Below, in pieces: positions 21,684-49,403 of a DNA stretch of 64,000 bases. Source of the DNA: Candidatus Latescibacterota bacterium. Lineage in GTDB: Bacteria > Latescibacterota > UBA2968 > UBA8231. The first letter of the stretch is position 1; every line of letters starts with the position of its first letter. Location: NCBI GenBank assembly GCA_965206595.1, contig OZ242214.1:3712001-3776000 (forward strand). Reading direction: 5' to 3'. The position numbers and the translations under genes were made by a program. Below the pieces are notes generated by a model. The model saw nothing but the letters and a program-made list of their open reading frames with translations. It was not told the origin of the DNA and did no database searches.

Positions 21684-22940
21684 CTACTCTATCTCCTCGA
21701 AAGTGAACGGATACACCACCACTACATCGGTCAACGGGGGACGTCGCTGAGGTCTTGAGGGTTCCTCCCGGCGCGATTCAGCCCCCGATCCTGGCTCGCC
21801 AGCCCGCGCGGTGCTCTGTTGAGAGGGCCCGGCCTGCTGTGCGTACTGTCCGGCGGGTTGGAACTGCCAGCGCTGCACTTCTGCCACAATACAGACGCCC
21901 ACCTGCGCATTCATTACCGTGGACTTGGTCACGCTCACCGCCTCGACCACGCCGTTCACACGAATCGTGAATTGAACCTCCACCACGCCCTCGACTGCCT
22001 CTCCCTGGTCAAACGCCTCGGAAAAACATCGCCGCAGATCCGCGAGGTTGTGATCGACGATCGAATTGATCGCGCCCGTGTTCCGGGCAAGATCCCCCTG
22101 CTGGTTGCCGCGGATCTGGCGGGGGCCCCGGATAACCACCCGCGTCGTCTCCGTGGGCACTCGCTCTTCCAACTCCTCCTCCGCGATCACTTCCTTGCTG
22201 ACCATACGGCTGAAGTCAAACGGGAGGTCTATGGTCTCGATCGGGTGCCCCGACGCGTCGAACTTGAGCGCGAATTCCTTGAGAATCAGACGCACGTTGC
22301 GCACCTTGGGATGGAGGGGATCGAACACGACAAGCCCGCTGTAGTTCTCCCCTTTGAAAATCACCTCGTCTTCTCCATAGGCGGTCGCGCGCACGATCCC
22401 TATCCGTTTGGAAAAGCGATAGTGCTCGTTCCCGCTGATGCCGCGCAAGCCCCGGTAGTACCCCTCCAAGCTTTTGCGATCAGCCACCGGGGCGATCGTG
22501 TACGATTCCAGATAGCCTCCCCGGTCCGTCAACAGGATGACCTTCAGTGGATCCAACTGCATCTTGGCGTAGGTGTAGTTGTACACCGCGATGTTGAACA
22601 CGGTGAATCGATTCCGCACATACCCCACGTTCGGATCCATCCAATCCCCGTAGGTGTAGGGGTTGGTCGAAAGCTCTCCTCCTTTCGAATCGTCGGGAAA
22701 CATCTCGTTCAGCGCCGGATCGGTCATGTACTGCACATCTATCCGGGAGCCTTCCAGGTGGTAGGAGACTACTCCGTCATCCCCTATCGAATATTCCTCC
22801 CGCTCCGACTCCTTCGGGTCGAGGACGGAACGGTACTCGACTCGCGGCACCGAAAGGCACGCGGCCAGAAAAATCGGGGCCATCAGCATTGCGAAACGCA
22901 GGACACGGTTATTTAGCATCAGTTCCAACTCCTCCAGCAA
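21684..22940 (-). CDS. Lipoprotein with C-terminal AgmX/PglI (TonB C-terminal-like) domain
   Basis: FLAAC lipobox; C-terminal LRRCFSEA...EGVVEVQFTIRVNGVVEAV...CIVAEVQRWQF...VVYPFTF. The true start may be a few codons downstream. Confidence 0.8.
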   Translation of the reverse strand: MLEELELMLNNRVLRFAMLMAPIFLAACLSVPRVEYRSVLDPKESEREEYSIGDDGVVSYHLEGSRIDVQYMTDPALNEMFPDDSKGGELSTNPYTYGDWMDPNVGYVRNRFTVFNIAVYNYTYAKMQLDPLKVILLTDRGGYLESYTIAPVADRKSLEGYYRGLRGISGNEHYRFSKRIGIVRATAYGEDEVIFKGENYSGLVVFDPLHPKVRNVRLILKEFALKFDASGHPIETIDLPFDFSRMVSKEVIAEEELEERVPTETTRVVIRGPRQIRGNQQGDLARNTGAINSIVDHNLADLRRCFSEAFDQGEAVEGVVEVQFTIRVNGVVEAVSVTKSTVMNAQVGVCIVAEVQRWQFQPAGQYAQQAGPSQQSTARAGEPGSGAESRREEPSRPQRRPPLTDVVVVYPFTFEEIE

Positions 22941-22997
22941 TCGACTCGCGCCGCCGCATTCCCCGTATACGCGCAGCGTGGAGAGCTATGATCAGGA

Positions 22998-24767
22998 CTA
23001 CCGAAGTCGCAGTCGGCGCCCCCCAGGGCCCCAACCTTCGGTGAAAGGCCCTACCGGGACCTCCTCTTCGGGATACGGACGACCGAAGTAGTCGAGACTC
23101 AACAGTTCGTCACGGATCACCTTGGGGGCCGCATCGCACGGTGACGACCAGGCCAGGTGTTGTTCCTCGGTGTCGATCACCATGTCGAGCTCTACCATGC
23201 GGCTGTGGGCATCCAGACCGGTAGCCTGCCAGTCATCCAGACTGAAGTCCTCGTCCATCCCAGCGAGTACGTTGTAGTCCGATACGTTGTCCATGACCAC
23301 GTATTCGAACCCTTTCGGGCATCCCACGATGACGTTGTTGACGATGCGGTTGTCTTTGCACACGCCTACCCGGTCGCGGGTCGGACACTTCCGCATATGG
23401 ACTCCGGCATAGTCGCAATTCAGCACCAGGTTGTGGGCGATCAGAAGCTGGTCACAATCCTGCTGATAGACGCCGCTGCCCGCTTCCACGTTGCAGATGA
23501 CATTGTGGTCGATCAGGTTCGGGACATTCGATGCCTCGAAGAAGATCCCCCCGGTTGTCGCCGCGATGTCGTGCAGCAGGTTTCGCGTCACCCGTGAATT
23601 CTTGTTGGCGAAATCGATCCAGATTCCGGGGGCTGCATGACAATGGTGGATGTGGTTGCACTGGACAACGGTATCGCTGAGGATGAGGATCTTGATGCCA
23701 GCCGTCTCCCAGTAGCGCTCTACTTCCTGCCAGCCGCAGTCGTGGATGTGGTTGTCGGCCACCAGGCTCCGCGGGACGACGGTTCCCTGAATGCCGCCGG
23801 TGCCGCAGTCGTAGACGTGATTGCCGAGTACCAGATGGCCGCCCGTCGTCTCTTCCAGTTCGTTGCGGTTTTCATCCTCCAGACTCTCGTCGGTGAAGCC
23901 GCCGATCTCGATGCCCACGGAATTGATGTGACGAACGGTGTTCTCCTCGATGATCCAGTGGTGCCCGCCCCAGGTCGTTACGGCACCGTTTCCCGAACGG
24001 ATGAAACCGTTGCCGGCGTGCTCGAATGCCAAACCTTTGATGCGGATATACCCCAGCCCCCTCACCTGCGGATTAAACAGGAACTGCAGAGTGGTGGCCT
24101 CGATTTCGCAAGTGTTGGGATTGCTGCGATCGAAGGGATGCACGACCAGAGTGCGGTTCTCCGCATCGATCCAGAACGCCCCGGGAACCCGGGGCAGGTC
24201 GTCGCGCGTTCCGAGCTGGGTCAGGCGGCGGCCCCCCTGAAAAACCATGGCCCGGGGAAAGGTGTGTGGAGCCCGTCCGCGCTCGGCGTGGGCCCAGTGC
24301 ATGAGCTCGAAGTCCGCTTCGGTGGTATTGACGACGGAGAAGGGATGGTCCTCTTCGAAGAATGCTTCGGGCAGCTCCGCCGTCCACACGCTCAACGATC
24401 GCGCCAAACCGGTGTGTGACCACGTGGCGTCGATCACCTGGGAACCGCGGATGACGACCTCGGCACCAGGCGCCGCCTCATAGCTGATCATCGAATCCGG
24501 GCCGGTGCCGCCGCGCCGGGGCTGGACGAGCTCGCGGTAGACACCCGACTTGATCAAAACCTTCCCGCCCGGCTCGACGAGTTCAGCGGCGCGCTGAATC
24601 GTTAGAAAGGGCGCCTCTTCCGTGCCCGGATTGTTGTCGGCCGCCCCAGGGTGCTGCTGATCCACGTAGTAGATATGCCCGTAGGCAGTGCCATCCCGCC
24701 AGAACTGGAACGCCGTCCCGTCCGGCAGGGGGATCGGTGGACCTTGACCGTTGGATCGTGCCATCAT
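22998..24767 (-). CDS. Right-handed parallel beta-helix protein (pectin-lyase-like fold, DUF1565-type N-terminus)
   Basis: YYVDQQHPGAADNNPGTEEAPFLTIQRAA, GVYRELV, repeated N-x-I-H/GI-x-I beta-helix turns (GIWIDFAN, GIFFEAS). Confidence 0.85.
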   Translation of the reverse strand: MMARSNGQGPPIPLPDGTAFQFWRDGTAYGHIYYVDQQHPGAADNNPGTEEAPFLTIQRAAELVEPGGKVLIKSGVYRELVQPRRGGTGPDSMISYEAAPGAEVVIRGSQVIDATWSHTGLARSLSVWTAELPEAFFEEDHPFSVVNTTEADFELMHWAHAERGRAPHTFPRAMVFQGGRRLTQLGTRDDLPRVPGAFWIDAENRTLVVHPFDRSNPNTCEIEATTLQFLFNPQVRGLGYIRIKGLAFEHAGNGFIRSGNGAVTTWGGHHWIIEENTVRHINSVGIEIGGFTDESLEDENRNELEETTGGHLVLGNHVYDCGTGGIQGTVVPRSLVADNHIHDCGWQEVERYWETAGIKILILSDTVVQCNHIHHCHAAPGIWIDFANKNSRVTRNLLHDIAATTGGIFFEASNVPNLIDHNVICNVEAGSGVYQQDCDQLLIAHNLVLNCDYAGVHMRKCPTRDRVGVCKDNRIVNNVIVGCPKGFEYVVMDNVSDYNVLAGMDEDFSLDDWQATGLDAHSRMVELDMVIDTEEQHLAWSSPCDAAPKVIRDELLSLDYFGRPYPEEEVPVGPFTEGWGPGGRRLRLR

Positions 24768-24777
24768 TTCCTGCACG

Positions 24778-25971
24778 CTATTTCTGGCTGTAGAAATCGA
24801 TCTGCTGCTGCGCAATCGAGCCCTGTTGCGTCAGGGCGAATACCACCAGGTTCAACCCCATCTTCAACTGCGGTTCATTCGAAAACTCTCTCTCCCAGAT
24901 GCTCCCGTACGCCTTGTCCGAATAAACCGCCACCAGCCGTCCTTCCAGGAAAATCCCCTCCAGATGCGGCGCCGGAACCTTACTGCCCCCTGTTGCGCTC
25001 AAGATCTCTCCACCGGGTGGCGGTCCATCGTTGAAGTCAAAAAAGCTGTGATGGATGGGGTGGTCGTACGAGAGCATTATGAACCGCGCATCCTTCTTGA
25101 GCACATCCTTGAACATCTTCCGCAACGAGGCTTCAGCCGGGCCGTATTCCAGGGATGGGACCCCGTTCTCCGCGAACACGAACCCCCCCACCCTCATATA
25201 CTCCCCCAAGTTGCGGACCTCCTGGGCGGTGAGATTGAATCCCTTGTTCGCCGTGATATACACGAAGGGCGCCTTGAACAGATCCCGCGAATCCAGCTTC
25301 AGGCGATCCTCTACTTTGGCGTTTATCATGGTATACTTGTTGACAGCCCTCGCCAGTTGCGGAATCGCCCTGGGCGTTGGCGGATCCAACTCTTCTCCCA
25401 CCGCAAGTGCCAGATACACGAACCCCTGGATGTCCTGCTTGTTTGTCGGATCCTGGATCACGAGCCCTTTGTACTTCCCCGTATCCAACGCGTCCAGATC
25501 GAGAAACTCCTCCTGCATGCTGAGCCGTTTCTCGGGCTCCTTGGTGCTGGCCAATCGCGCGAAAGCCGCGATCTCCGGGACGACTGCCTGCCCGCCCACA
25601 GTCGCCCCGCTCTCGATCGCATAATTGAACGTGGTCACGGTTCCGAATACGTCCGGACGATTTATGCGCTCGCTGATGGCGATCTCGGGAACGATCTCTG
25701 CCTGGACCCGCCTGCGCGTCATCTTTCGCTGCACCCGCTTCTTCTTCAACTCGAAGGGTTTGGTAAGCCTCGGGGTCCGCATCACAAACTCGAGCGTGGG
25801 CGGTTGAGCTTCCCGGATCTCCGACTTGGAGATCACCAGATAGGAGAACAGGCCCGCGTGTACCAACAAGGCGATGACCAGGCCCGCGACCGCATGCCGC
25901 CGGGTGTCGGCCAGCAGCCGGTTCAGCTTCAGGGCATCGGCAGGTGTTTCGAATCGTCCGTGCTGCGCCAT
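24778..25971 (-). CDS. DUF4159-domain protein with N-terminal TonB-like transmembrane anchor
   Basis: TM segment AVAGLVIALLVHAGLFSYL, a basic extended linker, then APFVYIT, GEYMRVGGFVFAEN, DHPIHHSFFDF, LEGIFLEGRLVAVYS, KMGLNLVVFALT. Confidence 0.82.
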   Translation of the reverse strand: MAQHGRFETPADALKLNRLLADTRRHAVAGLVIALLVHAGLFSYLVISKSEIREAQPPTLEFVMRTPRLTKPFELKKKRVQRKMTRRRVQAEIVPEIAISERINRPDVFGTVTTFNYAIESGATVGGQAVVPEIAAFARLASTKEPEKRLSMQEEFLDLDALDTGKYKGLVIQDPTNKQDIQGFVYLALAVGEELDPPTPRAIPQLARAVNKYTMINAKVEDRLKLDSRDLFKAPFVYITANKGFNLTAQEVRNLGEYMRVGGFVFAENGVPSLEYGPAEASLRKMFKDVLKKDARFIMLSYDHPIHHSFFDFNDGPPPGGEILSATGGSKVPAPHLEGIFLEGRLVAVYSDKAYGSIWEREFSNEPQLKMGLNLVVFALTQQGSIAQQQIDFYSQK

Positions 25972-25993
25972 CGCTCTTTCCCCCAAGTGCTTC

Positions 25994-26443
25994 TTACTGG
26001 AACACAAACACTGTATCCAGACGGGCAGCGGGCCCTCGGAACAGGGAGTCGTCCACCGCGCTGACCAGGAAGAAAAACCAGGTCGAATCAGCAAACCCGT
26101 CCTCTGATAAACTGGACTCTTCGATGCTGTAGGCAGTCTCCTTCACGAGCGCCTCCCTCCGGAGTCCCAAGGTATCGGACAACGAGACGACAAACCCCGC
26201 CACGTTCGTGTCGTCGGCCATCCTCCACGTCAGGACGACCCGCTGCCCGTCTTCGACCTGCGCCTGCAGGTCGCTGGGAGAACCCAGCAAGGTTTCGTGG
26301 AACGCAACGGGAGCGTCGTGCTGTTTGCTGCAGAAGACCAGGCCTGCCGAAAGAATACCGAACCAAAGGATGTGCCATACGTTCAAATGACCGATCCTCC
26401 GATGCGTAGACCCCGCCGTCGCTATCTCTTTATTCCGTAACAC
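25994..26443 (-). CDS. Small fibronectin type III-like exported protein or lipoprotein
   Basis: Hydrophobic segment ending LVFC; PSDLQAQV...VVLTW...VAGFVV...FLVSAVD fits an FN3 pattern. Confidence 0.65.
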   Translation of the reverse strand: MLRNKEIATAGSTHRRIGHLNVWHILWFGILSAGLVFCSKQHDAPVAFHETLLGSPSDLQAQVEDGQRVVLTWRMADDTNVAGFVVSLSDTLGLRREALVKETAYSIEESSLSEDGFADSTWFFFLVSAVDDSLFRGPAARLDTVFVFQ

Positions 26444-26474: not shown

Positions 26475-27026
26475 TCAGAACCCCTTCGATATCACGATCC
26501 CCGTCGTGCCACCTACGGGACCTACTGACACCCGCGGCCGGCGGTCGACCTCTTGGGAAGCGGTCGCATCCCCCGATTGCCAGAACAGGATATCTACCAG
26601 ATTCAAGGCGTAGATCGCCGCCGCTGCATACCCGAAGATCTGCCGGCGACTATGCAGGTTGTCCAGGTCATCGTTCAGATCCACCAGACGCCGCCACTTG
26701 GCCTCCGCCTCCTGGTGGTTGCCGCCCACACGCAGAGCTTCGTACTCGCTCCGGGAGGTCGCGTATACATCCCGACGTGTGCTGTAGGACTCGTGCCCGT
26801 CTACCGCCACGATCAATGAGACCAGCTCGCCCAGAAAGAGCGCCCCGCCCTTCTGCTTCTGCCCGGAAGCCATCTGTCCCAGACCGGGAAACAGCACGGA
26901 CAGAACCACTGCCGTATTCCGCGACACCCGGACCTCTTCGGCAAACATCTCTTCCTCGCCTTCGGCCTCCCGCGCCGTCCCGCAGACAAACGCCGCACAC
27001 AACAGAACGCAGATCACGTGTTTCAC
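26475..27026 (-). CDS. DUF5683-like membrane protein
   Basis: Signal peptide, AVVLSVLFPGLGQ motif, AAIYALNLVD. Confidence 0.7.
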   Translation of the reverse strand: MKHVICVLLCAAFVCGTAREAEGEEEMFAEEVRVSRNTAVVLSVLFPGLGQMASGQKQKGGALFLGELVSLIVAVDGHESYSTRRDVYATSRSEYEALRVGGNHQEAEAKWRRLVDLNDDLDNLHSRRQIFGYAAAAIYALNLVDILFWQSGDATASQEVDRRPRVSVGPVGGTTGIVISKGF

Positions 27027-27047
27027 GAGCTCTCCTCCCAGGGCTTT

Positions 27048-30000
27048 CTACAGCCGATTGGCGACGATCCAATCCCTGTGCTGCTTGGCGAACTGATACG
27101 CATCAGGAGTGCCTGTCCCCTCTTCATGCCGGGCTATCACACGGTCATACACACCCACCGCCTCATTCCACTCATTGAGGGACTCGTAGGTGATACCCAT
27201 GTTGTTCAGAACGCCGAGCTCTGTTTCCGTGCCCGGATACTCCTCGACGAGTTCCCCCATGTGGGAGAGGATACGCCGAAACGACTCCTCATCCTCGTTG
27301 GCCATGGCCTGGCGGAAGTCCACGGCGATCTTCTGATACCTGGTGAAAGCCACCGCCTCTCTCAAATCCTCGATCAACTTCGGCACCTCGGCCACGAGCT
27401 TATCGTCCGGATGATCGTTTACGAGCCCGACGTAGGCTTCCAGGGCCTCCTCGTACTGCCCTTCGTTGTAGCGGTAATCCCCGACGGTGAATTTGGCGCT
27501 GGCAGCCAGTTCACTGTCGGGGAACTCCGCGATCAGCCGGCCCAGACTCGCCATCGCTTCTTCTCCGCGCCCCAGTTCCATATAAACCCATGCGCCGCTG
27601 TACAAGGCGTCATCCTGCTCCGCTCCGGGCCAGTCGTCGGCGACCGTTCTGTACGCGTTCAGCGCCTCCTCGTACTTCCCCAGGTTGAAATAACTCTCCC
27701 CTATCCTGAACCAGGCATCGCCCGCGGCCTCGTGTTCGGGGAACTCTGCGACCAGCCGCTCGAACGCAACTATGGCGAGCCCGAATTCCCTCTGGCCCGA
27801 CCGGATGTGCCCCAGGTAGTAAAGCGCATTCGAGGTGTTCGCATCCCCCTCATGGCGCTCGAGGAATCGATCGAACTCGGACGCCGCCTCTTGCGGCCGC
27901 CCCATTTGCATGTAACCCAGCCCCAACGCGAAGGTCATATCCGGGGCGTATATGGAGTCCGGGTAGCGCCGCAGGGCTTCCCTGTAGGTTTCTATGACCG
28001 AGGCATAATCCTCCAGGCGATTGCAGGCGTCCCCCAGGAGGAAGAGAGCCTTCTCTTCGATCGAATCGCCTCCCCCCGGTTTCCCGCCCGAAACCTCCAC
28101 GATCTCGCGAGAGATGCGCACTACCTGATCGTAGCTCTTCAGCCCGTGATACAGCTCGGCCAGAAGAAGCAGGTATTCGGCCTTCTCCTGCAAATCCGTG
28201 GCCTGGGCAGCCAGGGCCTCGTAGTTCCTGCTTGCCTCCAGCTCCCGACCCTGCTGGATCAGGGACAAACCCAGCATCCGGCGGCCGGCACGCTGAAGCA
28301 CCGGATCATCCGCCTCCTCCACCACACGCTCGAAGTCCCTGTCGGCTTCCCCATGCCGCCCCAGGCTCAACAGGGCGGTTCCCCTGGCATAGAGCGAACT
28401 CACCAGCAACCGGGGCCGGTCCCGGGCGCCGTCGATAACCCCCGTGAAATCCTTTGCAGCCTCCTCGTGCGACTTTTCCCCGGTGTGGGCTTTGGCCTTG
28501 ATGTACAGATAGCGTGTCCGCACCTCGGAGGTCACCGTAAAGGCCAGCGCTTCATCCATGATGTCCAGGGTCCGGGAATAGGCCTCCTTGCGGATCAGAA
28601 TCTCCCCTGCCGCCACCCGTGCATCGGCAAACAGGGGCGACTCAGCCTGCACAATCAGGAAGGCCTCGACGGCCTCATCCTCCTGCCCCTGGTCGCGATG
28701 ACAGACCCCCCGTTCGAAATGCGCCATCGACGCCTGTGGCGAATCGGGGAAGCGGCGGAGCAGTTCTCCATAAGTCTTCAGGGCTTCGGCATACGCCTGC
28801 TGGTCGTAGAAGATGCGGGCGACCTGGAACAGCGAGCTTTCGACGAGCGGGTCGTCCGGGAAATCCGAGATAATGCCCCGGAACCCCTCCAGGGCCCGGG
28901 CCGTTGAGGATTCATCGCCCATGAACTGCCGGCAGAGGGCGATATTGAACTGCAGGCCCACCTGCAGGCGCGTGTCGGGCCAGGCGTTCAGCGTACTCTC
29001 ATACCGGGCTACGGCCTCACGGAAAAGGGATACGGCCACTGGCCGTTGACTCGCGGCCAGCGCCTGCTGTCCCTTGTCGTAGTATGCCCGGCCGATGTTG
29101 TATTCCGCCTCGTCCACGGGAAAGCCCGCACGAGCCGCCACATCGTCATATCCCTTGATGTAGACTTCATATTCCTCGATGGCTTCATCGAAACGTCCGC
29201 TTTCCGAATAACGGCGGGCAATCTGGGCCTGCATGCGCGCCTGAAAGTACCTGTCGCGCACCCGGTCGATGGCATCCTTGTACGTCTGGATGGACTGCTC
29301 GATTTTCCCCTTTTCGTAGTACATATCCGCCAGACGGCGATAACCCTCTTCGACAAAGCCCCTTTCCGTCGAAAACAGGGTGATCACCCGCTCGAACGCC
29401 TCCGCCGCCCTGTCGAGCTTCCCCAGCCTCGAATACCCGTCCCCGATCTTCAGCTGGGCCTTGGCGGCCAGCTCAAGGGCCGTCTCGTCCACCAGCCCGG
29501 CCAGCTTTTCCCGCCGCATCCTCATCAGATCCCGCTCTGTCAGGCCGTACACGTTTGCCCGGGCAACGAGCTGTTCGTAGTAGCCGATGGCCTTCTCATA
29601 GTCGCCCTGGAGGTAGTAGCATTCCGCGATCTGAAACAGCGCCCGGTCCGCCCGGAAGCCCGTTTGGGAATGCCGGATCAGCGCCTCGAACGCCCGGATG
29701 CTGGACTCGTAATCGCCTTGCTCGAAGTGCGACCAGGCGATGTCGTACATCGCGTTTTCCACGAACTTGCTTTCGGGGTACTTCGATATGAGCGTTTGCG
29801 CTTCAACTATGGTCTGTTCGTAGTCCTTCGCTTCGTACCACGTCGTCACCAGACGGCTCTGCGCCAGCACTCCCAATCCTTGAGCCGTCGCCTCGGATTC
29901 CACTCGCTCGAAGAATTCCACCGCCCGCTCCAGGAACGTCTGTGCCTCGCGTTCGGCTTTTTCCCGGTCCGTCGCGCTCTCCCCCCATCCCGCTATTCGC

Positions 30001-30290
30001 AGCGCCTCCAGAGCCATCTTGAAGTAGGCGTTGCCCGACTGGTAAAGCGCCGCTTCGGTGACCGGTGCCGTGATATCTCCTACAGTCACCGTGACCTCTT
30101 CGACGTGGAGAAGGGCACTGTTCACCTGGCCGACCTTCTCGTACTGTTCGACCGCCTGGTCGTATGCTTCGGCCCCGTAGAAGCGCTGCGCCTCTTGAAA
30201 AGAGGCCAGCAAATCCTCCGCGGTGGGCACATACCGGGTCCAGGCTGTAACCCCCAGGCCCAAGGTCACCATGATCCACGCAAGAGGCAT
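27048..30290 (-). CDS. Large periplasmic TPR protein (BamD/YbgF-like repeats, about 1080 aa)
   Basis: N-terminal hydrophobic segment, then many TPR units ending YPxS/FPxS (KYPESKF, RFPDSPQA, EFPDSELA). GGAG lies upstream of 30290. Confidence 0.88.
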   Translation of the reverse strand: MPLAWIMVTLGLGVTAWTRYVPTAEDLLASFQEAQRFYGAEAYDQAVEQYEKVGQVNSALLHVEEVTVTVGDITAPVTEAALYQSGNAYFKMALEALRIAGWGESATDREKAEREAQTFLERAVEFFERVESEATAQGLGVLAQSRLVTTWYEAKDYEQTIVEAQTLISKYPESKFVENAMYDIAWSHFEQGDYESSIRAFEALIRHSQTGFRADRALFQIAECYYLQGDYEKAIGYYEQLVARANVYGLTERDLMRMRREKLAGLVDETALELAAKAQLKIGDGYSRLGKLDRAAEAFERVITLFSTERGFVEEGYRRLADMYYEKGKIEQSIQTYKDAIDRVRDRYFQARMQAQIARRYSESGRFDEAIEEYEVYIKGYDDVAARAGFPVDEAEYNIGRAYYDKGQQALAASQRPVAVSLFREAVARYESTLNAWPDTRLQVGLQFNIALCRQFMGDESSTARALEGFRGIISDFPDDPLVESSLFQVARIFYDQQAYAEALKTYGELLRRFPDSPQASMAHFERGVCHRDQGQEDEAVEAFLIVQAESPLFADARVAAGEILIRKEAYSRTLDIMDEALAFTVTSEVRTRYLYIKAKAHTGEKSHEEAAKDFTGVIDGARDRPRLLVSSLYARGTALLSLGRHGEADRDFERVVEEADDPVLQRAGRRMLGLSLIQQGRELEASRNYEALAAQATDLQEKAEYLLLLAELYHGLKSYDQVVRISREIVEVSGGKPGGGDSIEEKALFLLGDACNRLEDYASVIETYREALRRYPDSIYAPDMTFALGLGYMQMGRPQEAASEFDRFLERHEGDANTSNALYYLGHIRSGQREFGLAIVAFERLVAEFPEHEAAGDAWFRIGESYFNLGKYEEALNAYRTVADDWPGAEQDDALYSGAWVYMELGRGEEAMASLGRLIAEFPDSELAASAKFTVGDYRYNEGQYEEALEAYVGLVNDHPDDKLVAEVPKLIEDLREAVAFTRYQKIAVDFRQAMANEDEESFRRILSHMGELVEEYPGTETELGVLNNMGITYESLNEWNEAVGVYDRVIARHEEGTGTPDAYQFAKQHRDWIVANRL

Positions 30291-30372
30291 CACAGACTCC
30301 TGTCCATAACAGGCCGCACAGACCCGCGCCCCGTCACCGGCTGCAAATCCCGGACATGATCGGGCGGGGCGG

Positions 30373-31701
30373 TCACGTAAGCCATCTCGGCCAGACCGCC
30401 TCTGCCAGGAAGAGCTGGGACTGCTTCTTCTCCCCGGCGCAATACGCAATCCACCGGTCATCCGGCGAAAAAACGGGGTGCGGATGCGGCCCCCCCGCCC
30501 ACGTGGTGTTGTGCCGGACCAACGGGCGCACCTCGAGATAGGAGCCGCGTTTGCGGAACACCCCTATCCACTCATGAGCGGGAAAGCCCGGTGCGCTGGC
30601 CTCGGGCCAGTAGTGCAGCCAGTAGTCGAAATCCACCGAGTCATCTCGACGGTAGCCGCTGCCGTTCACACCGCGGCCTTCCAGCCACAGGAAACCGGGG
30701 TCCGCCCGGTCGCCGGCCCACATGTCGTCGGCGTTGTTGCACTTGAAGTGGGTGGGTGCCAGTCCCGGGAACACCCACCGGCTGGTCGTGCGCCGCGCCA
30801 AGTCGACATCGAGCAGCATCGCCAGCTTTTGCTCCTGAGCGATGGGGATTCCGTCCCGGTCGTAGGCCGTATGGCGGTAGTGGAACGACTCGACGTGGGC
30901 GTCTGGCGCTGAATAGTAGTGGTTCACGTAGTCGTACGGCTGCTGGTCGAATAGCGGCATCGGGTCGTGTATCGGTCTGAGACGCTCGAGATCGACTTTC
31001 ATGAACCAGGCGGTCTTGACGCCCGTTGGCTGCAACCTCGAGTAGCTGCCGAACCACACGTAGGACGGGTCGCCGCGACTGATGAAGAGGTGGCTGTCGG
31101 GGGCTGCCCGGTTGTCCGCGCTCGGTCCGTGATAGACCACTTCCTGCCGCTTGTCCTGTACGTCGACCAGGAGCACCATCGCTTCTCTGCCGTAGCGGTA
31201 GGCATAACTGGTGCGCCTGGACTCCGGGCCGCAGCCGAGGACGAGATAGCGCCCGCACGACGACAGGTCCGGACCGTGCAGGGCTCCGCAGCCCTCAGGC
31301 GACTCGGCGACCGCCTCTTCGCGCAGCGTCTCCACATCCAGGGCGAGGAACTGCCTGTCGCGTCCGAAGTAGACGATGCCGCGCTGGGGATCGACGGTGA
31401 AGCCGCCCGACGGCGCATCGTCCGTGAGTTGCACGATCTTGCCAGAAGCCACCTCCACCGTGTAGAGCTGTTGCGTGCCGGTGCGGTTGGACGTGAATAC
31501 GAATCGCTCTGAACCACCGATGAACTGCTCCTGATTGTAATAGGCGTTCGTGTTGGCACACGGCTGGTCCGTCAGTTGGAGCACTCGCACATCCGTCGCC
31601 GGGTCTGAGAATTCCCGCTTCTCAGAAGGATATGTGTCACCCTTTGCCACGCCTACACGCTCCCAGTCTTCGTCATGAATGCTCGCAACCATTTCCTGCA
31701 A
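30373..31701 (-). CDS. Oligogalacturonate lyase (Ogl)-like beta-propeller protein
   Basis: DPATDVRVLQLTD, FVFTSNRTG, GKIVQLTD and C-terminal HPHPVFSPDDRWI. No signal peptide. Confidence 0.75.
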   Translation of the reverse strand: MQEMVASIHDEDWERVGVAKGDTYPSEKREFSDPATDVRVLQLTDQPCANTNAYYNQEQFIGGSERFVFTSNRTGTQQLYTVEVASGKIVQLTDDAPSGGFTVDPQRGIVYFGRDRQFLALDVETLREEAVAESPEGCGALHGPDLSSCGRYLVLGCGPESRRTSYAYRYGREAMVLLVDVQDKRQEVVYHGPSADNRAAPDSHLFISRGDPSYVWFGSYSRLQPTGVKTAWFMKVDLERLRPIHDPMPLFDQQPYDYVNHYYSAPDAHVESFHYRHTAYDRDGIPIAQEQKLAMLLDVDLARRTTSRWVFPGLAPTHFKCNNADDMWAGDRADPGFLWLEGRGVNGSGYRRDDSVDFDYWLHYWPEASAPGFPAHEWIGVFRKRGSYLEVRPLVRHNTTWAGGPHPHPVFSPDDRWIAYCAGEKKQSQLFLAEAVWPRWLT

Positions 31702-43339: not shown

Positions 43340-43629
43340 GGATGCTCCCTGGGTCAGAGGTCCACAAGAATGAATTGAGGAGCGAAATACCATACGGCCC
43401 TTGAGGAATTCGCGGTCACTCCTGACTCCCCGGTGAGGGCGCCTGGGGAGCGAACAGTCAACTGCAGGGGACGAATGCTGTCCGGGGCAAATGAGTTTCC
43501 ATGGCAAGAGGGTCGATGAGCCGGGATGGATCGGCGCTCGTGCAGAAACGGGAATTAAGCCAGGCAGCACTTGATCCATCCCTCGAGATTACGTGCAAAG
43601 CGCGGGCCGCCCCCACGGCCGGAAGAAGC

Positions 43630-45699
43630 TTAGTACACGAGGCCTACGGTGCCGACGCGTCGCTCATCCCCTTCATCCGCTTCCACCAGCAACTCATACA
43701 GATAAATCCCCGGAGGCACGACGTTTCCGTGGGAATCTGTTCCATCCCAGCGACCCGGCGGGGACTGCGAACCGCCGTCATACCGTCGCGCAGACAGTGG
43801 ACCGGCGTGCAACTCCCGGACAAGCGATCCGTCCAAAGAGAAAACCCGAACCGATACGGGGGCACCTTCCGCCTTGGCCAGCGTGAAAACGATGGTAGCC
43901 TGGTCGTTCCTGCCATCCCCGTTCGGCGTGAAAATGGCGGGCTGTGCCTGCGCGTCTATTAACACTTGACCCAACACTTGAGGGGCGGAAACCAACCATC
44001 CTCCCTCCTGCACATCTTCGACCACGTTCTGCGGATTTTCCGAATCCAGCGCGAGCAGCTGGGCGCTCCAGGAGTGAGCAATCGTGTAAATCGCGGCCCT
44101 CATATGAATCGACAACTGCACATCCTCGTTCAATGGAGGATCGAAAGGGATCTCCAACCCCCTGTCGGTCATTCCGGCGCCAACCACCTCACTGCCAGTG
44201 CCTTCCAGCCCGTCGACGGGTGAAACGGGGTCGAGCGTCACCGGTCCCGGAACCGCGATGATCAGCCGCTCAACACCACTGTTCTGCCCGGAAATCTCCA
44301 AATCAAGATCGTACGTGAAGGTCGTATCCCTCCCCATCTCCACACTCAGCGGCGAAATCCGCCCCGAGGCTGATCCGGCGGGCACGTCATCCACAGAGGA
44401 TTCCACCGTGATACTCCGAAACCGGGGGGTCACGCCCTCCACGCTCGTCGACAGTCGTACCCGGTATTGGAACTGGCCCGCGGGCTCGGGCGCCTCGACG
44501 AAGGTATTGCTGTCCTCGTACGCGTATTCCCTCGTCCACGCACTCCACTCGCCGTCTACCATCGTCCTGAATTGGAGAGCTATCGAGGTACCGACGGGCA
44601 CGTCCGCCTCCCAGGTGATCCTGCCGATGTTCTTCGCCCCCTGTTCGCCGAGATCCAGGGGCTCGGATTGGAACGTCCCGACGGCACTGTAGGCCTCACC
44701 ATACACCTCGATCTCGGCCACATCCGGCGAACTGACCCCGTCAATCTCGGCGACTACAATCCGTATGTATCGTGCCAGGGCGGGCTCGAAACGGACCGAG
44801 GTCTCCTCGTACTCGGTGATCCCGTGCAGAACCGCGACTTCCGACCAGCGAAACTGGTCTTCGCTCACCTGAACCGAATACCCCTTCAGGGAATTGATGA
44901 AATAGCTACCCGACCTGCCTGAGGGTGCCTTGGTTATCACCCGGACCCCGCTCACCCTGCGAACCTCCCGCAGGTCCATGCTCACATGCTTGTTCAGGGC
45001 ATTCGCACCGGGTGTCCACGAACTGGTCAGCACCCCATCGTTGGCTTCCAGGACGCTGGAGGGCTGCCCCAAAGCCAGATTCCGACCATCAATCGAGCTC
45101 AGCGCAATCCCCCCTTCCGCAGTTCCGATGTCCACGTCTCCAGGATAACCCGCCACAGGCACAACCGATGGATTCGTACGCCCCGCTATCTGCGTCGGAT
45201 CCAGGGTGCCGGACTGAACCAGCGGGGCCTTGCTCCAGTCCACCTCAGCCAGGTCCGGATCCTCGCTGGACCATCGCCATGCCCCCTCCCGTTCCTCCCG
45301 ATTCCCCAACTTCGTGCCCGTGTGCTGCACACCGGTCTCCAGCTCCACCAGCAGCCCGCTCCCGTTCCCATTCCCCTCACTGGTCACTCGCACTAGTATT
45401 TCATTGGTGCCCCGGTCGACCGATATCTGATAGGTCTCCATCGTCGTCCAGTCGTCGTCGGACCCGATAGTCGTACCATTGAGCCACAGCTCGTACCGAT
45501 CCACCGCGGTCAGCCGTATCGCCCCATCACCCGCTACATCGGCTTCGAACTCGCTATAGTACCATGCCGTATTGTCCCAGGAGGCCTCCCGGCACACCCC
45601 CGAATCGCACTCCATCTCCGACGCGACATGCGCCGGTACGGTGAGAAGGAAAACCGATAGACTCAGGTTCCTGAGCTGCTCGTGGCTGCGCTTCATCAT
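43630..45699 (-). CDS. Exported discoidin (F5/8 type C/CBM32-like) domain protein with C-terminal FlgD Ig-like domain
   Basis: NLALGQP..ANDG..SW..MDL..YSVQVSED..W..ARYIRI..VAEIEVYG; C-terminal IFTPNGDGRND..WDGTDSHGNVVPPGIYLY. Confidence 0.85.
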   Translation of the reverse strand: MMKRSHEQLRNLSLSVFLLTVPAHVASEMECDSGVCREASWDNTAWYYSEFEADVAGDGAIRLTAVDRYELWLNGTTIGSDDDWTTMETYQISVDRGTNEILVRVTSEGNGNGSGLLVELETGVQHTGTKLGNREEREGAWRWSSEDPDLAEVDWSKAPLVQSGTLDPTQIAGRTNPSVVPVAGYPGDVDIGTAEGGIALSSIDGRNLALGQPSSVLEANDGVLTSSWTPGANALNKHVSMDLREVRRVSGVRVITKAPSGRSGSYFINSLKGYSVQVSEDQFRWSEVAVLHGITEYEETSVRFEPALARYIRIVVAEIDGVSSPDVAEIEVYGEAYSAVGTFQSEPLDLGEQGAKNIGRITWEADVPVGTSIALQFRTMVDGEWSAWTREYAYEDSNTFVEAPEPAGQFQYRVRLSTSVEGVTPRFRSITVESSVDDVPAGSASGRISPLSVEMGRDTTFTYDLDLEISGQNSGVERLIIAVPGPVTLDPVSPVDGLEGTGSEVVGAGMTDRGLEIPFDPPLNEDVQLSIHMRAAIYTIAHSWSAQLLALDSENPQNVVEDVQEGGWLVSAPQVLGQVLIDAQAQPAIFTPNGDGRNDQATIVFTLAKAEGAPVSVRVFSLDGSLVRELHAGPLSARRYDGGSQSPPGRWDGTDSHGNVVPPGIYLYELLVEADEGDERRVGTVGLVY

Positions 45700-45736
45700 T
45701 CGGACCGCCTCGAAATCACCCAAAAAATCCCCTTGG

Positions 45737-45779: not shown

Positions 45780-45802
45780 GGTTACACGATCGGCGACTCT
45801 CT

Positions 45803-47803
45803 TTACTTGAGCAGGGTCATCTTCTTGGCCTGCTCGTGGTCCCCGACCTTCAAACGGTAGAAATAGATGCCGCCGCCAACGGCCTTTCCGCCGTCGTCGT
45901 TCCCGTTCCAACTGGTGCGATAGGACCCCGCCGACATGAACTGGTTAACCAGCGTGGACACTATCTGGCCCTGGCTGTTGAGTATCATCAACTTGGCATG
46001 GCCATCGGTGGGAATGGCGAACTCGATCGTCGTCTGCGCATTGAATGGGTTGGGGTACGCATCGCCCAGGTCAACCGCGTCCGGCGTTGCAGCGGACGTT
46101 TCCACGACCGCGGTCTCGACATCACCGATCAGAGCCTGCTCGATCCGGAAGGGCCAATGAGCGACCTGATAACCACCGAACTCGTCGTTCCAACCTGTCG
46201 CCCCTTCCTCCGCGGGCTTCTCGGCGGTCAGGATATAGAGTCCGTCCCAGTCAGACTGCTCGTGGATCATGTTCGTCCCCGAACCAGTCGCCTCGTGATT
46301 ACTGAGCGGAATATTGGGGCCCTGGGCGTGGAAGATCCCGGCGCCATCGGGGCCGTAGACCGCTCCGTAGGCCGGCTGGCGGGACATGTCTCCCTTCGAG
46401 CCCTCAGTCATGAAGACGAATCCCGGGATTGCCCCACCAGAGATGGAGACCGAATGGGACTCACCATCCGTCACAGGCTCAACACCCAGCGCCTGGGCTT
46501 CGCCAGCCCAGATGTTGTCATTGAAGCCGTCCCCAGTGTGGTTCTGGTAAATGAGGTCGCCGTCCCAGTCGACTTTGATCGGAACCCAAGGGATCGAACT
46601 TGGACCCCAACCGCCAGCGGACATGACGAACCCTTCATCGTCGATCGATATGCAGTTGATCATGCTCGCCGCGAGAGCCGTTTCGGTAACTTCCGGGTCG
46701 TGGCCGAATTGCTCCCACACCATGTAATCGGAGACGTCGATGATGTCGGTGACTTCGCCCGAGCTGGAATCCAGCTGGTAGATACCGGCGGACGGGGGAT
46801 CGTTGAACCACCCGTTGCCCATGTACAGGAAACCCTCGTAGTACTGCAGGGAGAAGAAGAAAGTGCCGTCATCGCCCTGGGCGATATTCTCCCCTGTTTG
46901 CCAGCTATTCGGTGGTTCCCCGAAGCCGGCCATGGGCTCGGAGGTCTGCGAATCCCAGTCTACGGTAACGCCGATGACGCCTACGCCGGCATAGCCGTAC
47001 ATCCAGTTCCTGGAGAAATCTTCAGGATCGATGGCCACGCCATGTGCCTGGCCACTCAGGATCTGTACCGGATCCCCGTCGTCGTTGGTCAAGCCGTAAT
47101 CCGGCAATTCGGTTGTGTATGCGGAGAGGATGTCGAAGGGATCGTCGGCATCCAGCCAGTTCCCCGGGGGGATCGGATACAGTGTGAAGCCGCCACCCAT
47201 ACCGCCGAGGAGGTGGCTTCTCGGCCCGCCCAGATCGTTATTGCAACATCCACCCAAACGGGCGGGGACCATGTGCATGTATCCCTGGCCCTGCATGACC
47301 TTCACCTCGGAGCTGCGCATCCGGAATCCGTAACCCGTGACGGCAACCCAGTTGGCGTCGGTGATGTTGTCGTAGCCCAGAACATAGAGGGTGTAGGTGC
47401 CAGGCTCGACGTCCTCTCCGGCCCAATCCGTGCCATCCCACAGGCAGGAATGCGATCCCACGTCAAACTGGCCGCACTCGACCACTTTCACCACGTTGGG
47501 GATCCCCTCCCTGCGAAGCAGCGCGTGGCCGCCATTCCATTCGGGTCTACCCGGGCCGCCGAAACCACCTGGAGTGGGCTGGTCCTTGGTGTAAATCGCC
47601 AGGTAGACCGTGGCTTGGGTACCCGACAGAGTAAAGGGAACCTCCGCGTTGCCGCTGAAATCGTAACTCACATTGCTCACTTCAATCCCGAGCATCGTGA
47701 GATCCTCGCTCCGCACGTACTCGTAGCCAGCGGTCCCCGCGTACGTCAGGGACGCACAGAGGGTGAGGATGACCACGGACATCAAAGTCAATTTGACTCT
47801 CAT
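45803..47803 (-). CDS. Exported protein with N-terminal FlgD-like Ig domain and C-terminal T9SS type A/FlgD-like domain
   Basis: Signal peptide; WDGTDWAGEDVEPGTY near the N-terminus; AYPNPFNAQTTIEF...GIYFYRLKVG...KKMTLLK at the C-terminus. AAGGAG RBS. Confidence 0.88.
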   Translation of the reverse strand: MRVKLTLMSVVILTLCASLTYAGTAGYEYVRSEDLTMLGIEVSNVSYDFSGNAEVPFTLSGTQATVYLAIYTKDQPTPGGFGGPGRPEWNGGHALLRREGIPNVVKVVECGQFDVGSHSCLWDGTDWAGEDVEPGTYTLYVLGYDNITDANWVAVTGYGFRMRSSEVKVMQGQGYMHMVPARLGGCCNNDLGGPRSHLLGGMGGGFTLYPIPPGNWLDADDPFDILSAYTTELPDYGLTNDDGDPVQILSGQAHGVAIDPEDFSRNWMYGYAGVGVIGVTVDWDSQTSEPMAGFGEPPNSWQTGENIAQGDDGTFFFSLQYYEGFLYMGNGWFNDPPSAGIYQLDSSSGEVTDIIDVSDYMVWEQFGHDPEVTETALAASMINCISIDDEGFVMSAGGWGPSSIPWVPIKVDWDGDLIYQNHTGDGFNDNIWAGEAQALGVEPVTDGESHSVSISGGAIPGFVFMTEGSKGDMSRQPAYGAVYGPDGAGIFHAQGPNIPLSNHEATGSGTNMIHEQSDWDGLYILTAEKPAEEGATGWNDEFGGYQVAHWPFRIEQALIGDVETAVVETSAATPDAVDLGDAYPNPFNAQTTIEFAIPTDGHAKLMILNSQGQIVSTLVNQFMSAGSYRTSWNGNDDGGKAVGGGIYFYRLKVGDHEQAKKMTLLK

Positions 47804-47975: not shown

Positions 47976-48533
47976 CTACGACGTTCCGGGCACTATCACA
48001 AAATCATAGCCTTTGACGGTGACATTCTTCACCTGCGAACTGACCGTCAAGCGATGGTACTCCTCGAAGGGATACCACTTCTTGACCCCGGTTTCGGGTA
48101 CCAGGACCGCCGGCTCCTCCTCTGGCGGCTCGACTCCGATAATCCTGAAGGCCTCTGTCTCGTCGAAAGGGTCCATCTTTTGGAAACCGTAGTTCACGTA
48201 AGCGCACAAACTGTCCTTGATGATCGCGAAAACCTTCACCCCCTTCAGATCGTTCCATTTGGCATTCCCGTACGGCTGATTCCCCAACTGCGGGCGATAG
48301 GCGTCAGGTTCCCCGAAGCGAGCGACCAGTTCCTCCACGCTGCTGCCGAGCACGAAGTGGACATCGAGGTAGGTCTCGCCTTCGGCATCCCTCGCCGCCT
48401 TGAAGGCTGCAATTTTCGCACCTTCGTCCTGTGCGACTTCCTCGCTCTCGGAACAAGAAACGAGTTGAATTCCGCAACAGCTTAATGCGAAAACACCTCG
48501 AATTAATGCGAAAACACCTTGAGTTCCAAGCAC
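47976..48533 (-). CDS. Hypothetical lipoprotein
   Basis: LVSC lipobox-like motif and LVARFGEPD. The start is uncertain. Confidence 0.65.
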   Translation of the reverse strand: MLGTQGVFALIRGVFALSCCGIQLVSCSESEEVAQDEGAKIAAFKAARDAEGETYLDVHFVLGSSVEELVARFGEPDAYRPQLGNQPYGNAKWNDLKGVKVFAIIKDSLCAYVNYGFQKMDPFDETEAFRIIGVEPPEEEPAVLVPETGVKKWYPFEEYHRLTVSSQVKNVTVKGYDFVIVPGTS

Positions 48534-48558
48534 TAATTTTCCCGAATACCCCTGCGGA

Positions 48559-48987
48559 TCAAGACGTTCCCAGCAGGGCCTCCGCTTTCTTTTCGGTAGC
48601 GAGCACGATCTTCTCGATCCCGATCCGCTTCGCCGTTTCCATCAGATCAAGGACCAGTCCGTGCCGGGTATCCTTGTCGGTGCGAATGATCAACGTCACC
48701 ACCCTCACCCCCTCCTTCTCCCGCGCCAGCACGCCCTCCAGGCTTTCCAGCGTCACGGGATGGCGGTTCACTTCCATCACTCCGGCGCGATCGATCGTGG
48801 CCACCAGCTTTTTTTCCTCGATCATCGCCGCCTCTTCCGCCTCTGGGAGCAACACCTTCAGACGGTAGGGCTCTTGGAACACCGTGGTCACCATGAAGAA
48901 AATCAGCAGCAGGAACACGCAATCGATCAACGGAGTCAACTCCATCTCCCCCGACTCGACACCGCCCTCCCGACGTTCCGGTCCCAT
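48559..48987 (-). CDS. exbD: Biopolymer transporter ExbD/TolR
   Basis: LTPLIDCVFLLLIFFMVTT with the conserved Asp; IIRTDK..HGLVLDLMETAK. Confidence 0.93.
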   Translation of the reverse strand: MGPERREGGVESGEMELTPLIDCVFLLLIFFMVTTVFQEPYRLKVLLPEAEEAAMIEEKKLVATIDRAGVMEVNRHPVTLESLEGVLAREKEGVRVVTLIIRTDKDTRHGLVLDLMETAKRIGIEKIVLATEKKAEALLGTS

Positions 48988-48989
48988 CT

Positions 48990-49403
48990 TCAGGATCCCT
49001 GCAACTTGGCGAAGGCGATCCCCTTCACACCCACCCCCCTCGCCGCATCCACAACCTCCACCACTCGAGATTGGGCGGCATCCCGGTCTCCCTGGATGAT
49101 CACGTTGTCGTTCCGATTCTCCACCATCGCTCGCTCTATCCGGGCCCGCAGCTGGCCAGGGAGTACTTCCTCACCGCCGATTTCGACGCGGCCGTCCCGT
49201 TCGACGATGATGTTGATATCCTTCTTTTCCTGCTGCTCAGTGGCTTGGGACGCCCTCGGCAAGTCGACATCCAGCCCCCGTGCATGTATGAAAACCGTGG
49301 TCACCATGAAGAAAATCAACAACAGAAAAACACAGTCGATCAGGGGGGTCAGATCCACCGTTTCTTCGGTGATGAAGCTCTGTTTCGCTCGGTGACGGGC
49401 CAT
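48990..49403 (-). CDS. exbD: Biopolymer transporter ExbD/TolR
   Basis: LTPLIDCVFLLLIFFMVTT, VDLPRA, IIQGDRDA..VVEVVDAA. Confidence 0.93.
   Translation of the reverse strand: MARHRAKQSFITEETVDLTPLIDCVFLLLIFFMVTTVFIHARGLDVDLPRASQATEQQEKKDINIIVERDGRVEIGGEEVLPGQLRARIERAMVENRNDNVIIQGDRDAAQSRVVEVVDAARGVGVKGIAFAKLQGS

Follow-up and report, generated by a model that had tools for sequence, protein, structure and literature searches.

We analysed a window of 64,000 nucleotides (G000:C1:3712001-3776000) from a Latescibacterota genome assembled as a single contig (7.05 Mb, 92.9% complete), and in particular a cluster of 16 open reading frames (ORFs) at positions 21684-49403 of that window, which we regard as one copy of a lineage-specific, modular and previously undescribed envelope machine of Latescibacterota. 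The ORFs lie exactly where a first-pass annotation, made from the letters alone, had placed a co-oriented and tightly spaced gene set: every one is on the minus strand, and the intergenic gaps, read from the ORF coordinates after trimming obviously over-long starts, are 0-172 nt. In the direction of transcription the cluster comprises two exbD genes, a small lipoprotein gene, two genes for surface proteins, four genes for large paralogous proteins, a propeller gene, a gene for a giant tetratricopeptide repeat (TPR) protein, genes for DUF5683, small single-pass and DUF4159 proteins, a beta-helix gene and a second lipoprotein gene. When the domain labels were tested with Pfam and NCBIfam hidden Markov models (HMMs) on the 16 proteins, 15 of them were confirmed in full or in part; the exception was 'FN3', given to a 149-aa ORF that matched no domain even at E 0.1. 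As had been stated, the locus contains neither a plug-domain receptor of the SusC type nor SusD, there being no Plug, TonB_dep_Rec or SusD match in it.

The four large paralogs, P1 to P4 (961-1011 aa), matched no Pfam or NCBIfam family, and no Plug or TonB_dep_Rec model of Pfam at E 0.01. We refer to their family as PAR. P1 (PAR-a; 40607..43579, its true start probably ~60-90 codons inside the ORF) is the first barrel paralog and is 38% identical to P2 (PAR-b copy 1; 37660..40563), 37% to P3 (PAR-b copy 2; 34753..37638) and 33% to P4 (PAR-c; 31702..34737); the A2 profile scored 963 bits on P1 and 975 bits on P2. A HMMER search of 1.84 billion cluster representatives gave 402 PAR clusters at E <=0.001, 125 of which reached <=1e-30, and none of these 402 clusters (at 50% identity) is annotated. 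The Atlas search with PAR found only unnamed clusters of Latescibacterota and Gemmatimonadota, the nearest named one being DUF6029 at 0.88, a lead only. Against PDB sequences, a 73-sequence PAR profile found nothing but one chance hit (E 0.027). PAR is thus a new protein family without a sequence relative in Pfam, NCBIfam or PDB.

An AlphaFold2 model of P4 (pLDDT 82.2, pTM 0.83) was nearly all beta. Foldseek matched it to MtrB (6r2q_B, E 1.1e-8), and it aligned with the Deinococcus protein SlpA/SDBC (7zgx_A, Z 13.4, rmsd 5.3, 381 residues aligned) and with the FimD usher (9fy9_D, Z 11.5, rmsd 6.4, 321 aligned). On the strength of this model we are confident that PAR is a giant plug-less outer-membrane beta-barrel. 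Counted from the DSSP string, P4 would have about 24 membrane strands, and on that count two long loops would be extracellular, namely a 230-aa insert (258-485) and an Asp-rich segment resembling a calcium site (585-709). Modelled alone, the insert gave a beta-sandwich plus helices (pLDDT 83.8) with no Foldseek match at E 0.001; a wide VIA search put Gram-positive pilin Ig-like domains at the top with Z 5.0, and no fold could be assigned. The 35 N-terminal residues ahead of strand 1 include N81, Y82, Y87, Y103, D104 and G107, near-invariant in the 73 sequences, and this segment is a candidate periplasmic docking site. PAR shares its fold class with the solved giant barrels (SlpA/SDBC, MtrB, FimD usher) but differs from them in sequence (6-10% identity, low TM-scores) and in having no SLH domain, coiled-coil stalk, usher plug or cytochrome partner. 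A chaperone-usher identity was considered for PAR and rejected: the likeness to FimD (Z 11.5) is at the level of the barrel only, no Usher family was matched, and the P4 chain ends with the last strand.

P2 and P3 are 99.8% identical across 2826 nt. In DNA run X1 the short-read contigs cover one PAR-b copy alone (P2), at a depth of 57-64 compared with 33, that is, about double. Single-copy contig coverage at roughly twice the depth, taken with the near-identity, indicates a true and very recent tandem duplication of PAR-b; in the near relatives L006 and L008 the PAR genes number three instead of four. Since two of the four paralogs are near-identical duplicates, the conserved unit is a triplet. 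The four large exported paralogs of the first-pass annotation therefore stand as plug-less barrels, but as three position-specific paralogs and not four.

The rest of the genome contains many more PAR genes. The PAR HMM matched 33 ORFs, which we read as 32 genes (one 233-aa match overlaps another), and these are distributed over 17 arrays with 1 to 4 genes each. The complete accessory set is present in three of the arrays: locus A in the window, locus B (C1:3814829-3834312) and locus C (C1:6490724-6515380), which have in common a CTD666-like and a CTD697-like gene (see below), three PAR genes, and genes for the giant TPR, DUF5683, small single-pass and DUF4159 proteins and for the lipoprotein. 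In a quick maximum-likelihood tree of the 32 proteins with SH-aLRT support, a module clade of 11 was separated from a second clade of 21, which sorts by position too. Within the module clade the grouping of genes from loci A, B and C follows array position instead of locus (support 99-100): P1 falls with loci B and C in a position-1 clade (99), P2 in a position-2 clade (100) and P4 in a position-3 clade (99). This grouping indicates that the PAR triplet is old and that its members are not interchangeable, and it suggests that the triplet is a hetero-oligomer. A partial copy of the window locus (L114; G000:C1:4964421-4972703) contains close paralogs of P4 and CTD666 together with a DUF6785 gene, and adjoins a DDE_3 transposase gene.

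Among the neighbours of the 14 non-module arrays, 67 of 91 ORFs were scanned; the 24 omitted were mostly the shortest, and all were <200 aa. In the recurrent pattern two PAR genes were preceded by genes for two CTD proteins, the first with F5_F8_type_C, and were often followed by genes for a SurA-like protein with a double peptidyl-prolyl isomerase (PPIase), TPR proteins, FG-GAP/ASPIC proteins and giant membrane proteins resembling spermine synthase. Directly after many non-module PAR pairs (L105, L108, L109, L113, L115) comes a gene for a SurA-like protein that has two PPIC-type PPIase domains. Large membrane proteins with a spermine/spermidine-synthase-like domain, in some cases combined with MFS or TPR parts, are encoded repeatedly near PAR loci (785-3382, minus strand, in the window; L105:347-3382; L109:13886-16456; L092:3569-6610), and FG-GAP/ASPIC-UnbV proteins stand repeatedly beside PAR loci both in this genome (in the window at 3413-5524 and 12594-15056, minus strand) and in L040, L076 and L088.

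Immediately upstream of the barrel genes are two genes for type IX secretion system (T9SS) cargo. CTD666 (45803..47803; 666 aa) combines FlgD_ig (53.9 bits) with a type A sorting domain (TIGR04183, 32.1 bits, cut-off 23), and its Atlas neighbours are Por_Secre_tail clusters. CTD697 (43630..45723; 697 aa) carries a lectin-like discoidin domain (F5_F8_type_C, 40.3 bits) and a CHU_C-type C-terminal domain, which at 25.6 bits was slightly below the cut-off of 27 in the protein scan and at 29.3 bits was above it in the genome-frame search. The genome has one SprA and 61 CHU_C matches. A CHU_C-type gene was found within 5 kb of 16 of the 17 PAR arrays, and 29 of the 61 CHU_C-type genes lie <=5 kb from a PAR gene, whereas 300 random placements gave 2.3 on average and never more than 9; F5_F8_type_C domains recur on the surface proteins that are paired with PAR. 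In RNA libraries, contigs from two metatranscriptome runs of one study, labelled as sponge metagenome and 95-99% identical to the window, span 45797-48035, covering CTD666 nearly end to end, together with small pieces of other genes. Ahead of CTD666 is the gene for a small protein of 185 aa with a lipobox-like N-terminus (47976..48533), which belongs to no Pfam or NCBIfam family.

The cluster begins with two genes for ExbD/TolR-type stator subunits, exbD1 (48990..49403; 137 aa; Pfam ExbD 100.1 bits) and exbD2 (48559..48987; 142 aa; 99.1 bits; cut-off 25.4 for both), the second starting 2 nt after the first. The transmembrane (TM) segment of exbD1 (motif TPLIDCVFLLLIFFM) includes an Asp, whose role we presume to be that of its counterpart in E. 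coli ExbD. None of the 5 MotA_ExbB matches of the genome falls in the window; upstream of exbD1 the coding strand switches to the gene of a giant membrane protein with FtsX and Peptidase_M28 matches (49659..54443, plus strand, divergent from the operon). This protein, of ~1600 aa with ~8 hydrophobic segments and an FtsX-like C-terminus, is a possible associate: it adjoins two of the three full modules, and a paralog terminates locus C (L025:4371-9380), but it was not seen in 81 related loci and no ATPase partner was seen nearby. A classical ExbB-ExbD-ExbD-TonB cluster (TonB_C 60.9 bits) is located separately at 5.09 Mb and presumably serves the 24 Plug-domain receptors of the genome. The ExbDs of the window are closer to the ExbD of a PAR-free locus D (C1:217110-228894; L021), at E 2e-23, than to those of the 5.09 Mb cluster (E 4e-12 to 1e-9). 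Locus D encodes a PD40 propeller, a CBM9-like protein, the lipoprotein, a 311-aa unknown protein, a giant TPR protein, ExbB, ExbD and a DUF4159 protein, and it may supply ExbB in trans to modules without their own. The description of the cluster as ExbD-energised needs a qualification: the two ExbD genes are present and ExbB is inside the module in 34 of 81 related loci, but at this locus, which has no ExbB, it depends on a stator channel encoded elsewhere.

The first-pass annotation had labelled the last gene of the cluster as encoding an AgmX/TonB-C-like lipoprotein. This gene (21684..22940) does encode a lipoprotein, of 418 aa, with a conserved N-domain of ~230 aa and an AgmX/PglI-type C-terminal domain (NF033768, 61.1 bits, cut-off 40, one of 2 matches in the genome); TonB_C, at 18.3 bits, stayed under its cut-off of 24.6. 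All 33 aligned sequences of the family have the lipobox Cys, and the AgmX/PglI tail is found on only two of the four genome paralogs. The module lipoprotein is consequently not a transducer of the TonB type, most of its relatives having no such tail. The better candidate for a TonB/TolA analogue, and with it for the force transducer, is the single-pass DUF4159 protein (24778..26094, probable start 25971; DUF4159 107.1 bits; one TM segment). Across 29 aligned sequences these proteins have a short conserved N-tail, a single TM segment often containing His, a juxtamembrane motif FxxRxPRxTKPFExxK and then the DUF4159 domain. In locus D, as in several related loci, the DUF4159 gene comes after ExbB-ExbD; in loci B and C it overlaps the lipoprotein gene by 4 nt. 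When the complex of the DUF4159 head (135-397) and the lipoprotein N-domain (29-260) was predicted with a separate alignment for each, the scores were 0.00 and 0.00, which is uninformative either way. In our literature search DUF4159 was found in nothing but the Pfam database paper, and DUF5683 in incidental mentions alone.

The giant TPR protein (27048..30461; 1137 aa) probably starts at M58 (~30290), which is followed by a hydrophobic N-terminal segment. It has matches to many TPR families and to YbgF, BamD and PorW-like repeats, at least 25 TPR models in all; its tol_pal_ybgF score of 236.9 bits (cut-off 90.1) is a sum over 5 repeat stretches. Three further homologues are encoded in the genome. 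Next to it are a small DUF5683 membrane protein (26475..27026; 32.7 bits) and the 149-aa protein formerly labelled 'FN3' (25994..26443), a small single-pass membrane protein with a hydrophobic segment at residues 20-38; both have paralogs in loci B and C.

Conservation of the gene neighbourhood had been proposed as a check, and the families do co-occur within the genome, across related loci and across genomes of the phylum. Related loci were collected with a pattern scan over one genome per species; from the best 80 of 527 stretches we obtained 78 new loci, which with L006-L008 make 81. Many of them are cut by contig ends, so that the counts are lower bounds. Nearly all are from Latescibacterota or Gemmatimonadota, with single records from Handelsmanbacteria, Zipacnadia, Myxococcales, Rhodothermales and Planctomycetota. 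Homologues of CTD697 were present in 59 of the 81 loci, of the giant TPR protein in 54, of the module lipoprotein in 40, of the DUF4159 protein in 37 and of CTD666 in 33; ExbB occurred in 34, exbD1-like and exbD2-like genes in 28 and 27, and homologues of DUF5683, the small single-pass protein and DUF6785 in 14, 12 and 9. The small 185-aa lipoprotein has homologues in 7, ahead of CTD-PAR arrays. The commonest order was CTD697, one to three PAR genes, TPR, ExbB, exbD, exbD and the lipoprotein, with DUF4159 nearby.

Of 168 genomes of the phylum, 106 have PAR and 104 the lipoprotein, with nearly identical tallies by family: both were present in 75 of 75 genomes of family f1 and in 0/3, 0/22, 0/31 and 0/5 genomes of f2, f3, f4 and f14 (0/61 together). 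This agreement is inflated by relatedness, yet four separate families have neither. SprA, in contrast, was found in 160 of the 168 genomes and in 60 of those 61. Since SprA is present where PAR is absent, PAR is probably not a core part of T9SS. A complementary distribution of SusD and PAR was considered and rejected, SusD being rare everywhere (31 of 168 genomes, at most one weak match each). PAR loci L034, L038, L039 and L069 belong to SCGC AAA252-E07, which passages of the 2015 Latescibacteria analysis place among its single-cell genomes (PMC4454575). A literature search on Latescibacteria combined with ExbD, TonB, T9SS, PUL (polysaccharide utilization locus) or SusC found no description of the system, supplementary files, which might list genes, being outside the search.

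Two enzymes and a membrane protein provide the catabolic context of the locus. The propeller (30373..31701; 442 aa) resembles oligogalacturonate lyases of polysaccharide lyase family 22 (PL22), although Pectate_lyase22 (33.9 bits, cut-off 30) covers its N-terminal third only (profile positions 2-122 of 386); its alignments with the solved lyases 3c5m_A (E 4.8e-9, residues 19-132) and 3pe7_A extend over residues 19-136. The beta-helix glycoside hydrolase-like protein (22998..24815; Beta_helix 63 bits) matches the solved xylosidase 3vst_A at E 1.6e-34, whose family we take to be GH120. Neither has a signal peptide on a reading of its N-terminus, which implies that the PL22-like and xylosidase-like enzymes would act on imported oligosaccharides. 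Counterparts of these two genes are missing from loci B and C, and each has homologues in only 2 of the 81 related loci; a single genome paralog of the beta-helix gene is found at C1:3800794. They are probably cytoplasmic catabolic cargo of this module and its near relatives, outside the machine proper, and not the machine parts that the first-pass annotation had made of them. A co-directional gene 138 nt downstream of the 16-gene span (19578..21545, minus strand) encodes a polytopic DUF6785/DUF6784 protein (DUF6785 386.9 bits, ~10-12 hydrophobic segments), a candidate inner-membrane permease. The genome has 47 paralogs of this family, two of them in the window (this one and 6933-9002, plus strand) and several beside PAR loci; our literature search found no paper on DUF6785 or DUF6784.

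The flanks of the window contain, besides the second DUF6785 gene, three enolase-superfamily genes, a GFO/IDH/MocA gene and two FG-GAP/ASPIC genes; UxuA, two enolase-type genes, an aldo-keto reductase and a BNR protein are encoded near locus B. A xylose-isomerase-like TIM barrel is encoded at 57591-58382 of the window, and a GH106 (alpha-L-rhamnosidase)-like gene (62953-63999, plus strand) continues past the window end. In a scan for cargo covering 52 of 71 unassigned ORFs in 21 related loci, a sodium:solute symporter (L031) and a GFO/IDH/MocA gene (L026) were found embedded in modules, and enolase-type, gluconolactonase-like, DHDPS-family and aldo-keto reductase genes were also obtained. Other modules hold FGE-sulfatase-fold genes, either between the two exbD genes (L076:19705-21051; L088:19887-21251) or after the lipoprotein gene (L028), and L055 has a DUF4340 gene.

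Assignment to a known machine was the outcome against which the idea of an undescribed system had to be measured. The HMM and fold searches assigned the set to none of the T9SS core, Tol-Pal, Agl-Glt or Sus, and we conclude that no known machine, the Ton system included, accounts for the cluster. Among its closest parallels is the SusC/SusD PUL. In both, a gene for a large barrel is almost always paired with one for a surface glycan-binding protein, many paralogs are found within one genome, and the operon sometimes includes catabolic and permease genes. However, PAR has no Plug or TonB_dep_Rec domain and the locus no SusD, the binding proteins beside PAR are T9SS cargo and not lipoproteins, the barrels come in position-specific pairs or triplets, and PAR modules carry motor genes, which PULs do not. 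SusD_RagB had 0 matches in the whole genome, the B. thetaiotaomicron control being positive. With the Ton system the module shares ExbB/ExbD-type stator genes linked to outer-membrane barrels and a single-pass protein in the slot after ExbD; that protein, though, ends in DUF4159 instead of TonB_C, and the PAR barrel is plug-less. The window itself has ExbD but neither ExbB nor a TonB combining a membrane anchor with TonB_C. Since the genome retains its classical ExbB-ExbD-ExbD-TonB cluster and 24 Plug-domain genes elsewhere, the paralogs do not replace TonB-dependent receptors globally.

We favour a PUL-like function, that is, capture and import of glycans coupled to the proton-motive force, as a tentative reading held at a little short of even confidence. 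It is favoured because the operon contains genes for a PL22-like and a xylosidase-like enzyme and has the gene of a polytopic membrane protein behind it; the PAR paralogy, with 32 genes and three full modules in one genome, can be likened to substrate-specific loci. Starting from the gene content, the barrel fold, the conserved neighbourhoods, the position-specific paralogy and the phyletic co-occurrence reported above, the physical contacts, the direction of transport, the class of substrate and the part played by DUF4159 would be as follows. The two T9SS-secreted surface proteins would sit on the cell surface beside a PAR hetero-oligomer made of three position-specific plug-less barrels, PAR-a, PAR-b (duplicated here) and PAR-c. 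A periplasmic TPR scaffold of ~1100 aa and the conserved lipoprotein would connect the barrels to an inner-membrane proton motor of the ExbB/ExbD type, with the single-pass DUF4159 protein as the likely TonB/TolA-like force transducer. Glycan would be captured at the surface, and oligosaccharides would cross the outer membrane at the cost of proton-motive force. The DUF6785 polytopic protein would then move them across the inner membrane, and the cytoplasmic PL22-like and xylosidase-like enzymes, together with the neighbouring sugar-acid enzymes, would degrade them. A bolder version of this reading, possible but rather doubtful, would add a further class of ExbB/ExbD-motor-driven machine to Ton, Tol, Agl-Glt and GldLM/PorLM: an active glycan importer without any plug-domain receptor, in which a hetero-trimer of 24-strand PAR barrels, capped by T9SS lectin proteins held by their CHU_C-type domains, would be opened by a DUF4159-headed TonB analogue through the giant TPR scaffold.

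Several observations weigh against glycan import driven by such a motor. The window has no exbB, and its sole TonB-C-like domain is on a lipoprotein and missing from most relatives. PAR has neither a plug domain nor a recognisable TonB box. The membrane orientation of the DUF4159 protein is ambiguous, because the stretch past its TM segment is very rich in Lys and Arg. The 14 non-module arrays are poor in carbohydrate-active enzymes, with one GH20 among the 67 scanned neighbours, and their gene company is more like envelope biology; some related modules hold FGE-sulfatase-fold or DUF4340 genes and not catabolic ones. The RNA-library contigs come from a relative 95-99% identical to the window, are patchy and could include DNA; their depth cannot rank genes, and uncovered parts mean nothing. 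Finally, transport itself is something that we infer.

The alternative that survives best, though we consider it unlikely, is a platform for surface display only, in which the PAR barrels would receive and anchor CHU_C-type (type B-like) T9SS cargo in the manner of PorP/SprF and no solute would cross. In Bacteroidota, barrels of the PorP/SprF family partner T9SS type B cargo, and here too a CHU_C-type cargo gene adjoins an outer-membrane barrel gene. The almost universal pairing of PAR with CHU_C (16/17 arrays, 29/61 genes) speaks for display, as do the lack of catabolic genes at the non-module arrays and the weak likeness of the variable extracellular PAR insert, a beta-sandwich, to adhesin and pilin domains (best Z 5.0). 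A PorP_SprF search of the genome gave no match, but the controls were silent too and the result is hence uninformative. On the other hand, anchoring would require neither an ExbB/ExbD motor nor a giant TPR protein or a DUF4159 protein, yet these are linked to PAR in most well-covered loci. Barrels of ~950 aa in conserved triplets, about three times larger than PorP/SprF, far exceed the size that an anchor requires, and modules include genes for cytoplasmic oligosaccharide enzymes and permease-like proteins. Moreover, PAR does not track T9SS (SprA 160/168, PAR 106/168).

A function in envelope integrity or outer-membrane biogenesis appears improbable. The PAR trimers would then be major structural proteins coupled to a Tol-like motor, as a Tol-Pal-like or SlpA-like tether. 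The TolR-like ExbD subunits, the YbgF/BamD-like TPR repeats and the outer-membrane-type lipoprotein are indeed reminiscent of Tol-Pal, and PAR-free locus D pairs a TolB-like PD40 propeller with ExbB, ExbD, TPR, DUF4159 and the lipoprotein. SurA-like PPIases stand beside many PAR pairs, and the best fold match of PAR is SlpA, the S-layer/outer-membrane protein of Deinococcus. Yet the Tol equivalog models were not reached (tolR 68.6 and 55.5 bits, cut-off 127.3; propeller_TolB 29.7 bits, cut-off 343.15), the Pfam scan detected no OmpA/Pal-type domain in the 16 proteins, and the TPR protein of the PAR modules is about four times longer than that of Tol-Pal. A housekeeping system would not be expected to occur as three full modules and 17 arrays within a single genome, or to be missing from whole families of the phylum.

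We give still less credence to an adhesion or gliding machine of the Glt kind, in which a TolQR-type motor would move surface adhesins through TPR proteins and barrels. With Agl-Glt of Myxococcus the cluster shares a TolQR-type motor with two ExbD-like subunits, large TPR proteins, several barrels, surface proteins and the AgmX/PglI C-terminal domain (61.1 bits, cut-off 40), and FGE-sulfatase-fold and DUF4340 genes, present in some related modules, belong to families that accompany gliding genes in Bacteroidota. The partial matches to GltG (42 bits, cut-off 650) and GltJ (17.6 bits, cut-off 450), however, are far under their cut-offs and are both due to the C-terminal 75 residues of the module lipoprotein, a tail that most module lipoproteins do not have. 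This tail is all that is common to the two systems at that level, and it is carried here by a lipoprotein; in size, the PAR barrels show no relation to the Glt ones. For the 16 proteins there were no further Glt matches: GltA, GltB, GltH, GltK, GltD and GltE were not among their NCBIfam matches, in a library whose Glt content is unverified. Many paralogous copies and embedded catabolic genes also misfit a motility organelle. Least probable of all is an export machine, with barrels that would secrete a polymer or protein outward under power or gating by the motor: the PAR fold matches include PgaA-type 4y25, PelBC 9h80_M, FimD ushers and SprA 8gl6_A (Z ~11-12), and one TonB-dependent transporter has reportedly been found to secrete a protease, but these secretion-barrel Z values are no higher than those of generic porins in the same list, and the modules have no conserved gene for a glycosyltransferase or polymerase.

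Latescibacterota are widespread uncultured degraders of polysaccharides, in sponges among other places, whose step of glycan entry through the outer membrane lacks a known route. Passages of the 2015 Latescibacteria analysis assume non-specific porins for sugar entry and assign TonB-dependent uptake to B12 and iron only (PMC4454575), and sponge-associated Latescibacteria are described, in passages of another study, as enriched in glycoside hydrolases (PMC8163846). The multi-copy module described here, with its giant barrel family, T9SS surface lectins and Ton/Tol-type motor, is a concrete candidate for that entry step. It bears on what ExbB/ExbD-type motors couple to, the DUF4159 protein and the lipoprotein being candidates instead of TonB or TolA, and on the docking partners of type-B-like T9SS cargo domains outside Bacteroidota, and it would give DUF4159, DUF5683 and DUF6785/6784 a functional context. 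If the reading as a plug-less importer is true, Latescibacterota would have evolved a system that does the work of SusCD with wholly different components.

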